Assembly (NCBI GenBank): GCA_964016885.1
Contig: OZ024743.1
Coordinates: 91,574,001 to 91,638,000, forward strand
Direction of reading: 5' to 3'
Length of the DNA stretch: 64,000 nt
Origin: Eledone cirrhosa
Taxonomy: Eukaryota
The position numbers and the translations under genes are program-made. Of this stretch, positions 40,301 through 42,058 are shown piece after piece (within the stretch, counting starts at the first letter, position 1; each line of letters starts with the position of its first letter). The notes under the pieces are model-generated. The model did not search any database. It had not been told where the DNA came from and saw nothing but the letters and a program-made list of their open reading frames with translations.

Positions 40301-42058
40301 GTTAATATGTTTGACTTCGACCCATCCGAGGGGCCAGTAGCTCTGCCTGAATACTAGCTCAGTCTGTGAAGACCCACAATTAGCAAGGAAAACGAATGTC
40401 ATATATATATATAGGAACCAGTAAGACCCCGACAGCTGAGCTCAGCTGTCGGGGTCTTACTGGTTCCTATTACCCACTCTACTACCTCAAGTATTGAGTA
40501 CTTTGGTGCGTTATGGTCCACCTGGTTCCTTACCACATTTCCTTCGTTATATATATATATATATATATATATATATATATATATATATATAAGATAAGTT
40601 TATCCCGGGTTCAATCGGGGGTAACCACAGTAAGTAAGGTACTCAATTACTCAATACAAAGCAGAGTATAAATATTTAATATAGAAAAGGCTTCTACAGG
40701 ACTAGATCTGTTTCATTCGGGAGAAATCATTAGTGCGGGCTTCCTGATGATTTCTCCCGAATCTAGGGGTGAAGGTACAAGCGCGCGTGTAATAACGGGC
40801 GGGGTATTAAAGAAATTGGGGAGGGCAGTTGAGTCCATGAAGGAAGCAGGAACTAAGGCGGTAGATCAGACTCTGCTCAGTCCTGGTGCGCGAGGCCTGT
40901 GATCCGTGATGTAAAAGGATACTTAGGACTGGGATATGTAGGATATATATATATATACATATATATATATATATATATATATATATATATATATATATAT
41001 ATATATATATATATATATATATATATATATATATATATATTAGTTTTAATATATTAGTTTTAATATAGATGAAATTCTACAGGACTAGAACTGTTTCATT
41101 CTTTAGAAATCATCAGGAATCATGTGATTCCTAATGATTTCTAAAGAATGAAACAGTTCTAGTCCTGTAGAATCTCATCTATATTAAAACTTTTATACTC
41201 TGCAATGTATTGAGTACCTTACTTACTGTGGTTACCTCCGATTCAACCCGGAATAACGTACTATATATATATATATATATATAAATAATAAAATAAGATG
41301 TTTTTACCAAAACAATCTTTTCCGAACACAATATATATATATATATATATATATATATATATATATTTAAGAGTAAAGACCCCCTTCGGTCACGAATGAC
41401 CATGAGATTTGTACCTAGAAAGTCCCTTTCCGAGGAACAAGGTTGTTTGAGGAAAACCAGCAGTCTCCCATGCATATCTGTTTTGTCCAAGGGAAAAGTA
41501 ATGGCAGATACAGCTTGCCACCAATGACGTCACACCTGATTTCTACAGCTCAGTGAATTGGAGTGATGTGAAATAAAGAGTCTTGCTCAAGGACACAATG
41601 ATTAACCCGGTCCATGAATCGAACTTAGAACCTCCTGATTGCAAGCCCAACGCTCTAACCACTAAGCCATCTGCCTTCACACACACACACACACACACAC
41701 ACACACACATTCTCTCTCTCTCTCTCTCTCTCTCTCTCTCTCTCTCTCTCTCTCTCTCTCTCTCTCTCCCCCTCTCTCTCTCTCTCTCTCCCTCTCTCTC
41801 TCTCTCTCTCTCTCTCTCACTCTCTCTCATATATATATATTATATTTCAGTAACAATGGTTTGGGCATTTCTTCATCTTGTGCTCGATTTGGTGCTTTAC
41901 TCTCACCCCTAATCCTTGGACTTTCTATATATGGTTCCTGGATACCTCTCAGTTTATACGGAATACTCGGAATTATTTCTGGATGTCTCCTTATTTTACT
42001 TCCTGAAAGGAAGGATGCTTGTTTACTCCAAACCCTCGAAGACATGGATAACATCTAG
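13280..42058 (+). CDS. SLC22: SLC22-family organic cation/anion transporter (MFS), 9 coding exons, ~547 aa
   Basis: join(13280-13328,16780-17156,20658-20761,28557-28711,34820-34991,35952-36206,38025-38239,39407-39515,41851-42058) = 1644 bp with compatible phases and GT-AG introns. Motifs: [42 protein letters not shown]...LLQTLED. Family-level call only. Confidence 0.92.
13575..14700 (-). mobile_element. Decayed PLE RT fragment (related to the 46742 element)
   Basis: [16 protein letters not shown]... is homologous to MQKDDYNDLILKELRN at 46779; degenerate GGLYR(N)D motif near 13950. Confidence 0.78.
15554..16030 (-). mobile_element. RTE (Rex3/Expander-like) LINE 3' fragment with (GAA)n tail
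   Basis: Minus strand reads [15 protein letters not shown]...GPRGRP...[16 protein letters not shown]. Homologues at 34346-34690 and 54705-54812, each next to a trinucleotide tract. Confidence 0.7.
16400..16595 (+). mobile_element. CRE-like LINE 3' remnant
   Basis: AVETSGYLG...YEPHELE..SRRVS matches the end of the 2236-3207 ORF. Other remnants at 14785-14830(+), 38490-38630(-) and 56675-56990(-). Confidence 0.7.
16780..17156 (+). CDS. SLC22: SLC22 exon (TM1 + large extracellular loop)
   Basis: TTTTTAG acceptor; [14 protein letters not shown], Cys and N-x-S/T sites in the loop, SSIVSE; GTGAGT donor. Confidence 0.93.
18189..18243 (+). ncRNA. Minimal type-I hammerhead ribozyme in a solo pLTR-like insert (18065-18390)
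   Basis: ACTGC-CTGAAGA-GGT.ACAGCC/GGCTGT.ACC-GAAA-TATATA-TA-GCAGT. Confidence 0.85.
18535..18868 (+). mobile_element. Solo pLTR of the 60350-62631 PLE family with HHR at 18614-18656
   Basis: Near-identical to 62300-62631; GTCA-CTGAAGA-G-GTCACA/TGTGAC-GAAA-GATC-TT-TGAC; (TA)n both sides. Confidence 0.88.
19298..19986. repeat. Inverted duplication (SINE + ~80 bp flank) centred on (TA)n
   Basis: 19298-19568 is a near-perfect reverse complement of 19716-19986. Confidence 0.9.
20658..20761 (+). CDS. SLC22: SLC22 exon, 104 bp ([35 protein letters not shown])
   Basis: CCTACAG acceptor, GTAAGT donor; not in the ORF track. Confidence 0.95.
23635..26405. mobile_element. Large fold-back PLE (3' GIY-YIG + 3' UTR/pLTR on both arms)
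   Basis: Arms 23635-25077(-) and 25172-26405(+), 94-bp spacer. Right arm reads [15 protein letters not shown]...IVYRC...YIGSTS...RYNAH...CDLCITE...CQHR without stops to ~25726. Confidence 0.92.
24026..24145 (-). ncRNA. HHR-like motif with very long stem II (core CCGATGA)
   Basis: GTT-CCGATGA-GCCGCTCTGTAT...ATATGGAGTAGC-GAAA-CAATTG-TA-AAC on the minus strand. Confidence 0.6.
26978..28484. mobile_element. Non-autonomous hAT element with nested inserts
   Basis: TIRs CAGCGGTCGCCAACC / GGTTGGCGACTGCTG; 8-bp TSD TGTTGTAT / TGTTGTAG. Confidence 0.85.
27060..28044 (+). mobile_element. Non-autonomous Helitron-like element
   Basis: A|TC 5' end, CTAG|T 3' end, degenerate subterminal CTCGAGCAACAC matching the hairpin region of 43630-44721. 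Confidence 0.65.
28557..28711 (+). CDS. SLC22: SLC22 exon, 155 bp (FGRFTGF...GSYIILFTL)
   Basis: Polypyrimidine TTGCAG acceptor, GTAAGT donor, phases 2/1. Confidence 0.95.
29589..31045 (+). mobile_element. 5'-truncated PLE (RT thumb + GIY-YIG + pLTR), Naiad-like
   Basis: [18 protein letters not shown]...; [10 protein letters not shown]...NCKTRNVVY...[16 protein letters not shown]; frameshifted; HHR at 30776. Confidence 0.88.
30776..30819 (+). ncRNA. Minimal hammerhead ribozyme with an extra nucleotide before stem II
   Basis: TATCA-CTGATGA-T-GTCACA-GATG-TGTGAC-GAAA-GAAC-TC-TGATA. Confidence 0.85.
31255..31561 (+). mobile_element. Diverged solo pLTR with HHR at ~31275-31318
   Basis: Homologous to 30760-31045; CTGACGA-T-GTTGCA/TGTAAC-GAAA-GAAC-TT. 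Another partial copy at 56415-56655(-). Confidence 0.78.
31612..32509 (+). mobile_element. Internally deleted mariner element
   Basis: TA TSDs; TIR CGAGGTGTGTCAGAAAAGTTCCAGG; transposase remnant 31800-32443 (RSGRPST, MVPKLL, ITSDES, QGDYFEG) lacking the second and third catalytic Asp region. Confidence 0.95.
32523..33145. repeat. Nested inverted duplication
   Basis: 32558-32793 is inverted at 32891-33145; 32523-32582 is inverted at ~32797-32856. Confidence 0.88.
33333..33575 (+). mobile_element. tRNA-derived CORE-like SINE
   Basis: GGCTAGTGGTTAGAG A-box, GTGAGTTCAATT B-box, GTGTCCTTGAGCAAGACACTTTATTTCACGTTGCT. Confidence 0.82.
33639..33878. mobile_element. MITE-like repeat (second copy ~42696-43056)
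   Basis: Shared ATGACAAAAAA..CATTACAAGAAATCCCAT core; imperfect TIRs TACTCTCRGGTCT / GGGACCCGAGAG. Confidence 0.55.
34820..34991 (+). CDS. SLC22: SLC22 exon, 172 bp (LECVTQDTK...[10 protein letters not shown]...IALK)
   Basis: TTACAG acceptor, GTAGGT donor. Confidence 0.94.
35181..35850. repeat. 48-bp minisatellite (~14 copies) inside the SINE-like element 35026-35850
   Basis: Unit CACTTTACAGTGTGTACTGGGTGTTTTTTGTCGTGATGCCTACATGA(C/A); homologous to the 1-1509 unit. Confidence 0.95.
35952..36206 (+). CDS. SLC22: SLC22 exon, 255 bp ([10 protein letters not shown]...[10 protein letters not shown])
   Basis: TTGGCAG acceptor, PESPRWL signature, GTAAAT donor; not in the ORF track. Confidence 0.95.
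38025..38239 (+). CDS. SLC22: SLC22 exon, 215 bp (FVNGMLYYG...IEIPA...FVTE)
   Basis: TTACAG acceptor, GTAAAA donor. Confidence 0.95.
39407..39515 (+). CDS. SLC22: SLC22 exon, 109 bp ([13 protein letters not shown]...AELFPTVVR)
   Basis: TTTTCAG acceptor, ELFPT signature, GTAAGT donor; not in the ORF track. Confidence 0.95.
40412..40528 (+). mobile_element. Tiny palindromic pLTR-like insert (HHR 3' half + tail)
   Basis: Palindrome AGGAACCAGTAAGACCCCGACAGCTGAG|CTCAGCTGTCGGGGTCTTACTGGTTCCT, then a tail shared with 52350-52442 and 58115-58211; in (TA)n. Confidence 0.75.
41056..41262. mobile_element. Tiny palindromic insert with two divergent hammerhead motifs
   Basis: Arms 41056-41122 and 41125-41191. 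Minus HHR ATTC-CTGATGA-TTTC..GAAT-GAAA-CAG..CTG-TA-GAAT (41074-41120); plus copy has CTAATGA. Relatives at 40595-40762 and 59495-59688. Confidence 0.8.
41520..41678 (-). mobile_element. tRNA-derived CORE-like SINE
   Basis: Reverse complement of the 52563/33333 family head and core. Confidence 0.8.
41851..42058 (+). CDS. SLC22: SLC22 terminal coding exon ([14 protein letters not shown]...[19 protein letters not shown])
   Basis: TTTCAG acceptor, phase 2 matches the previous exon, TAG at 42056-42058. Confidence 0.93.

Follow-up and report, generated by a model that had tools for sequence, protein, structure and literature searches.

Palindromic hammerhead inserts in Eledone cirrhosa are by-products of a Penelope-like element and center near its predicted transcription start

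Introduction

A stretch of 64,000 nucleotides from the Eledone cirrhosa genome (assembly GCA_964016885.1, contig OZ024743.1, positions 91,574,001 to 91,638,000; here called the window and numbered from its first letter) contains three short inserts that lack an open reading frame (ORF). In each, a minus-strand hammerhead ribozyme (HHR) motif stands back-to-back with a full or partial plus-strand copy, and one arm runs on into a common tail that ends near AACCCGG. Do these palindromes form a mobile family of their own, and why do their arms meet where they do? The first-pass annotation, made from the letters of the window, proposed a non-autonomous, retrozyme-like family that is mobilized by the machinery of Penelope-like elements (PLEs) and whose cDNA folds back at the ribozyme. 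We find instead that the inserts are almost certainly by-products of an autonomous PLE and that, in two families, the center of the palindrome lies about 30 bases after a TATA box and likely marks the start of the RNA.

PLEs are known for inverted 5'-truncated copies, for tails, and for the targeting of microsatellites, and the origin of tandem and inverted PLE insertions is named as an open question in the same source (PMC8557442). Earlier explanations invoke self-priming on an antisense template (PMC3846280) or circles made by the ribozyme (PMC4209133).

Results

The inserts are contained in an autonomous element

The three inserts, which the annotation had put at 40595-40762, 41056-41262, and 59495-59688, are present at about these positions (Table 1); they share the tail and 75 to 80% pairwise identity, and the junction differs in each. 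To describe the family, we fetched the first 100 consecutive tail matches on contig C1 and aligned all of them to one autonomous copy, L066. Insertion into (TA)n, also proposed by the annotation, holds for the family, where (TA)4 or a longer run comes after 95 of the 100 tails, but only in part for the window: insert 1 has (TA)n on its left side only, its short arm running into unrelated sequence, and the right end of insert 3 lies in (AC)n. Mini-palindromes make up 53 of the 100 copies (median, 185 bp; two of them, L131 and L133, are one duplicated locus).

Genome-wide counts were made as exact matches in the 3.0-Gb genome, each with a reversed-sequence control. The core 24-mer gave 10,834 matches, the tail 8,710, the core with its upstream sequence 5,474, and the tail running into the ORF 100, while the reversed controls gave 0. 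HHR and tail are parts of an autonomous element that has a reverse transcriptase (RT) and, at the C terminus, a GIY-YIG domain (loci L066, L067, L173, and L339), which bears out mobilization by PLE machinery and supplies the autonomous PLE with the same tail that the annotation had suggested looking for. At L339, an uninterrupted ORF of 713 amino acids directly follows the tail, its ATG lying 182 nt past the predicted transcription start. It encodes RWR at residue 38, DKT at 116, YRDD at 347, CNCLNKEAC (CxCX5C) at 566, YIG at 602, CDLC (CxxC) at 666, and CMH (CxH) at 694; the Pfam GIY-YIG match is weak (E, 0.022, below the cut-off). The tail is the leader preceding this parent ORF, and a microsatellite-rich 3' untranslated region (UTR) brings the unit to more than 3 kb. 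An RWK-like motif, DKT in place of DKG, CxCX5C, CxxC, and CxH define the Hydra clade, which inserts in (TA)n (PMC8557442), and the tail of a PLE lies between two internal RT start sites (PMC11167929). As judged by its motifs, the HHR in its pseudo-long terminal repeat (pLTR), and its (TA)n target, the parent is a Hydra-clade PLE. A first parent candidate, L031, was rejected as a chimera with a different, C-rich PLE.

The inserts do not stand as a new mobile ribozyme family. They contain no sequence foreign to the parent apart from junction bases, which number 0 to 6 in 50 of the 53 mini-palindromes; the upstream promoter motifs of the parent are absent from the inserts, and their arms are inverted rather than arranged as the direct tandem units of a retrozyme. 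Nor are they amplified as their own unit, since there are 48 junction types among the 53; four of these types do recur in unrelated flanks, as would be predicted for an ORF-less family that is mobilized in trans and whose separate RNA gives rise to fold-back at the ribozyme, but the exact junction of insert 2 occurs in three copies genome-wide on two loop II backgrounds. Such a family could also draw its RNA from a 12-unit tandem array of 1.07-kb ORF-less HHR units, and both the covariation of stem I between subfamilies and the clustering of family 1 ends at the HHR edge agree with it; the containment of the whole insert in the autonomous PLE, the missing promoter motifs, a predicted hairpin that buries the HHR, and the uncoupling of ends from the HHR in a second family (both below) largely refute it, and we consider it very improbable.

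Arm ends cluster at a predicted transcription start

We numbered positions from +1, the A six bases before the HHR core. The 5' ends of the tail arms fall at -3 to +13 in 40 of the 100 copies, at -85 to -4 in 5, at +14 to +110 in 27, and at -86 or beyond in 28 (a raw script tally of 42, 4, 27, and 27 in this order of position, -85 to -4 second, was corrected by moving L068 and L157, both of which continue upstream in a divergent subfamily). An adjacent inverted arm accompanies 60 of the 100 copies, and 45 of these arms end within the same 16 nt, which we call the wall. At least one arm ends at the wall in 48 of the 53 mini-palindromes and both arms do so in 33, in agreement with the nonrandom junctions just 5' of the core that the annotation had noticed; four solo copies without an inverted arm end there as well. 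The outer ends of the inverted arms are also fixed, 51 of 60 lying at about +60 or +66 (alignment +60 or +73). The inserts are truncated, head-to-head copies of an ordinary protein-coding PLE and the shortest of its insertion products, and their junctions are not random.

RNA polymerase II promoters have a TATA box at about -30, CCAAT at about -80, and an initiator at +1. The parent pLTR has a candidate promoter of this layout: CCAAT is at -84, TATAAA is at -30, and the +1, which lies six nt ahead of the HHR core, resembles an initiator. In five of seven loci from different subfamilies, including that of insert 1, the TATA box stands 35 to 39 nt before the core and CCAAT is kept, while the spacer diverges.

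The wall of a second family tracks its TATA box

The wall of family 1 is also the foot of stem I, and promoter and ribozyme are thus confounded there as causes. A second HHR family, with a minimal stem III and several copies in the window (Table 1), separates the two, its TATA box lying 94 to 95 nt before the core. Among the 87 ends of a control set (51 tail arms and 36 inverted arms), 40 lie at TATA+26 to +45, none at +11 to +25, 2 at -5 to +10, and 10 further upstream; downstream, 11 lie at +46 to +65, 6 at +66 to +85, 3 at +86 to +105, which is the HHR edge, and 15 beyond. The wall of the second family stands 50 to 65 nt upstream of its core: it follows the TATA box, not the ribozyme, and the fold-back caused by the ribozyme that the annotation had inferred is not supported. 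We conclude that the wall is very probably the transcription start. The second family adjoins Hydra-like ORFs of about 40% identity, and in the window a broken Hydra-like ORF (46794-48607) comes after one of its palindromes.

Several observations weigh against this conclusion or the model built on it below. In family 1, +1 coincides with the foot of stem I. The control set comprised the 60 top matches of two tail queries, from which 9 without an anchor were dropped, and two of its loci share one junction; the tie of the second family to the Hydra-like ORFs is one of adjacency alone. An extra G, as would be left by copying of a cap, occurs in 13 of 26 cases in family 1, where stem I confounds it, and in 5 of 16 in family 2 (p = 0.37). 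Finally, of 22 long ORF-bearing copies, drawn from 30 of the 100 tail-to-ORF loci, 15 keep at least 90 nt upstream of +1 (the others begin at -3 in two cases, at +47 in one, and at +83 to +110 in four), and a second route, by read-through RNA, a jump, or a circle, is therefore needed. These long copies, which show that RNAs crossing +1 exist, would also suit another reading, in which some structure within a longer RNA, whether read-through or circular, makes the RT stall and the TATA spacing is a coincidence; the family 1 wall, placed where stem I has its foot, would suit it as well. An RT should, however, be stalled by a stem on the 3' side, and the second-family wall lies at TATA+30, far from its HHR; we hold stalling to be highly unlikely.

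The ribozyme is mostly damaged or partial in the inserts, and most tail arms span its cleavage site

The family has the CUGAUGA, GAAA, and UH core elements and the three stems of a putative type I hammerhead. Stem I covaries between subfamilies (GATTC/GAATC in 116 copies, GCTTC/GAAGC in 9), and loop II varies while the stems hold. The family has the GUA site that the annotation read and a stem III of ACAG/CTGT (4 bp with an 8-nt loop); the annotation gave a 3-bp CAG/CTG. Stem II is closed by U.U and not by G10.1-C11.1 (read by eye; the motif scan itself had required U at both places), and loop III is quasi-palindromic, with a self-dimer at -12.8 against a hairpin at -1.4 kcal/mol. The annotation had set the motif apart from the minimal PLE type; with these two features it is less unlike the dimer-type PLE hammerheads than was claimed. 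An Rfam scan of the window found no hammerhead at E ≤ 1 and only microsatellite-driven microRNA matches. Locus L028 (about 480-750) holds a distant HHR palindrome family in which, likewise, U occupies either side of the stem II base.

Only one of the six HHR copies that make up the inserts is intact, 41116(-). Those at 40733(-) and 41131(+) read CTAATGA, a G5-to-A change in the core that is expected to inactivate; 40744(+) is partial, and in 59616(-) as in 59627(+) stem III is mismatched at the site or close to it. The 41056 and 59495 inserts fold as long hairpins, with z = -20 and z = -12, respectively, against 200 shuffles, far beyond chance, and a transcript through the insert is predicted to form a single 66-bp hairpin. 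With this fold and five of six copies damaged or partial, the idea that the transcript of either strand carries a ribozyme is not supported. In the 100-copy sample, 84 tail arms span the cleavage site and 2 end there (+45 to +48); a peak of arm ends at this site was looked for among these copies and not seen.

The G5-to-A change is shared by the tail arms of the neighboring inserts 1 and 2, yet it occurs in 1 of the first 100 core matches genome-wide. Among 30 top matches, 22 tail arms were of the CTAATGA type with CTGATGA partners; a reading of this asymmetry as RNA editing or as two templates was dropped, as the A was present in the query and, among core matches taken without bias, 99 of the first 100 have G.

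The two arms are best explained by two priming events

In 34 of 34 cases the two arms carry one and the same loop II variant (14.3 expected), which indicates that the arms share one template. A single cDNA of the same parent that folds back at the same RNA end and copies itself, later tip deletions making the arms unequal, predicts this concordance equally well; self-priming has already been proposed for PLE palindromes (PMC3846280), and the 5' ends of the two arms are at most 4 nt apart in 27 of the 53 mini-palindromes. The tail-less arm, however, is at least 5 nt longer at its 5' end in 20 of the 53, against 6 with the opposite relation. Insert 1 is a case of the former kind, its inverted arm extending further 5' than its tail arm. 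In L121 and L147 the difference is 100 to 260 nt. A tail-less arm that extends further 5' cannot be a plain copy of the tail arm, and the simple fold-back of a tail-bearing cDNA that the annotation envisaged is not supported on this count. The outer end sites of the tail-less arm are, moreover, two fixed sites that also terminate solo and full-length copies, and in vitro a PLE protein, starting at two internal sites, extends both strands of its target (PMC11167929). Two priming events on opposite target strands fit best, and the single folded cDNA is unlikely.

That the palindromes are assembly or library fold-back artifacts has a negligible probability. Palindromes beside microsatellites are hard to assemble, but the arms differ in substitutions and length, the flanks are unique, and head-to-head joints are numerous in short-read contigs of runs X1 and X2, at a depth of 8 to 225 (the runs may be from the assembled sample).

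We therefore favor a model, probable as a whole, in which a pair of cDNAs, each primed internally, runs off the mRNA at its 5' end and is then joined head-to-head. The CCAAT, TATA, and initiator-like +1 of the pLTR would act as promoter, and the mRNA from +1 would comprise the HHR, leader, ORF (ATG at +182), and 3' UTR. The endonuclease would nick both strands of (TA)n, and RT would begin at two internal positions of the RNA, near +60/+66 and near +134, as the fixed ends and the in vitro work (PMC11167929) suggest. Where priming falls on the 5' copy of these sites, the cDNA would stop at +1 after 60 to 134 nt, usually having read through an uncleaved HHR site. The cDNA ends may then be trimmed and joined with 0 to 6 extra bases, leaving a promoter-less dead-end palindrome of about 185 bp. 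Read-through RNA, or else a jump to the repeated 3' end, would yield the longer copies. In chimeric insertions, an arm of the family stands head-to-head with a different family (L025 and L011) or is fused before the C-rich PLE (L031), which suggests that the two target ends can take different RNAs.

Features and other repeats of the window

The coordinates of the inserts and of the second-family copies are collected in Table 1.

Table 1. Inserts, flanking targets, and second-family copies in the window
Feature	Position	Strand	Remarks
Insert 1, (TA)n target	40548..40591		Left of insert
Insert 1, tail-bearing arm	40596..40733	-	Older subfamily; HHR whose core (40733-40727) has G5 to A, then site and leader/tail
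Insert 1, partial inverted arm	40738..40762	+	Begins at predicted +1 of its subfamily, halts before GAAA
Insert 2, (TA)n target	40943..41040		Left of insert; another TA run after 41262
Insert 2, short arm	41057..41121	-	+2 to +66 of parent; core starts 41116; outer end at putative upstream priming site
Insert 2, junction	41122..41125		4 nt absent from parent
Insert 2, tail-bearing arm	41126..41261	+	+2 to about +134 of parent
Insert 2, stem I of tail arm	41126-41130	+	
Insert 2, core of tail arm	41131-41137	+	G5 to A
Insert 2, GUA site of tail arm	41167-41169	+	
Insert 2, tail	41191-41258	+	5' leader of parent ORF
Insert 3, (TA)n target	59454..59493		Left of insert
Insert 3, tail-bearing arm	59495..59622	-	Decayed copy of older subfamily; core starts 59616
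Insert 3, short inverted arm	59621..59688	+	Core starts 59627; site and stem III mutated
Second family, copy	12701..12950	+	Control reference; TATA 95 nt before core (core 12856)
Second family, two facing copies	10291..10920		Control reference and query; cores 10443 (+), 10822 (-)
Second family, further copies	8745-9050, 46230-46680		

At L170-L171 (G000:C1:83678500-83693000), about 12 tandem units of 1.07 kb lack an ORF, carry promoter motifs, an HHR, and the tail in every unit, and are joined through the element's own (TA)n; they come closer to the tandem arrangement that defines a non-LTR retrozyme than the palindromes do. Another (TA)n-inserted family occurs in the window at 40413-40549, 52331-52443, 57790-58212, and 54350-54380, and one of its copies, at 40411-40468, forms a perfect 58-nt palindrome and has a tail. 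Other families account for more hammerhead motifs and for inverted pairs, tails outward, in (TA)n (18194, 19097, 57566, and 32543-33160). Two head-to-head GIY-YIG ends of another Hydra-like family form an 875-nt inverted repeat, 99% complementary, at 24203-26046, and at 19292-19992 a common short repeat flanks (TA)n as a 304-nt inverted repeat, probably a local inverted duplication. Minisatellite arrays of 48-nt and 20/40-nt units occupy 1-1509, 35186-35825, and 55078-55704.

Discussion

Both the class of element and the palindromic structure are known; what is new is the wall at the predicted start site, whose position is seen in two families and which would reflect run-off at the 5' end of the mRNA. 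The literature searched yielded no report of junctions concentrated at the transcription start, with supplements and subscription papers lying outside that search. A young, high-copy family offers thousands of natural end products that tie the inverted junction to a predicted transcription start in two families, and the question of how PLE insertions arise becomes testable with 5' rapid amplification of cDNA ends and an existing in vitro assay.

In retroviruses, minus-strand strong-stop DNA is primed inside the RNA near its 5' end and runs off at +1. A comparable step in PLEs, with priming on nicked target near the 5' end of the mRNA, run-off at +1, and an obligatory jump to the repeated 3' end that rebuilds promoter and pLTR, is a tentative extension that we think more doubtful than probable; the mini-palindromes would then be failed jumps from both strands. 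If this were true, tandem and inverted PLE structures would require no ribozyme cleavage, circular RNA, or antisense template, and PLE start sites could be read from genome sequence alone. The analogy implies no membership: here the primer would be nicked target DNA and not a tRNA, and the run-off product would stay in the chromosome.

Among known systems, the Hydra-clade PLEs resemble the parent in their RWK-like motif, DKT, CxCX5C linker, CxxC, CxH, HHR, and (TA)n target, and resemble the copies described here in partial tandems, an adjacent inverted 5'-truncated copy, and an optional tail (PMC8557442). Unlike in the Hydra clade as described there, thousands of copies are present alongside an intact ORF, palindromes that lack an ORF are commoner than any other product (53 of 100), the tail is about 70 nt and not 30 to 40, and the unit exceeds 3 kb. 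Drosophila Penelope has a TATA-less internal promoter, unlike the present family (PMC2377424). Recently active Penelope families are reported from an octopus, in an account whose consulted passages mention no hammerhead, Hydra clade, or palindrome (PMC13282606).

Penelope of Adineta vaga shares inverted pLTRs, palindromic junctions, a tail on one arm, and TATA and Inr-like motifs in the pLTR (PMC3846280). Its palindromes were ascribed to self-priming on an antisense template, whereas here the junction lies at TATA+30 of a putative sense promoter in two families and the asymmetry of the arms favors two priming events. Poseidon of Anolis behaves in vitro as our model would have it, with two internal RT starts bounding the tail, both strands extended, and uncleaved RNA as the main template; it belongs to a different clade, and 5' junctions, palindromes, and transcription start are not treated in the parts of that work consulted (PMC11167929).

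The opposite-strand HHR pairs of Schistosoma likewise combine dual HHRs, ascribed there to truncated PLEs, with a palindromic loop III and an extra base after A9, but are 100 to 700 bp apart, while the cores here are 10 to 40 nt apart and have a 4-bp stem III with an 8-nt loop and U.U in place of G10.1-C11.1 in stem II (PMC4209133). Like the inserts, the non-LTR retrozymes are ORF-less, carry a type I HHR, and derive from PLE pLTRs; they are direct tandems with at least two HHRs in one sense (bioRxiv 10.64898/2026.07.22.740005), whereas the inserts are best seen as inverted products of single events.

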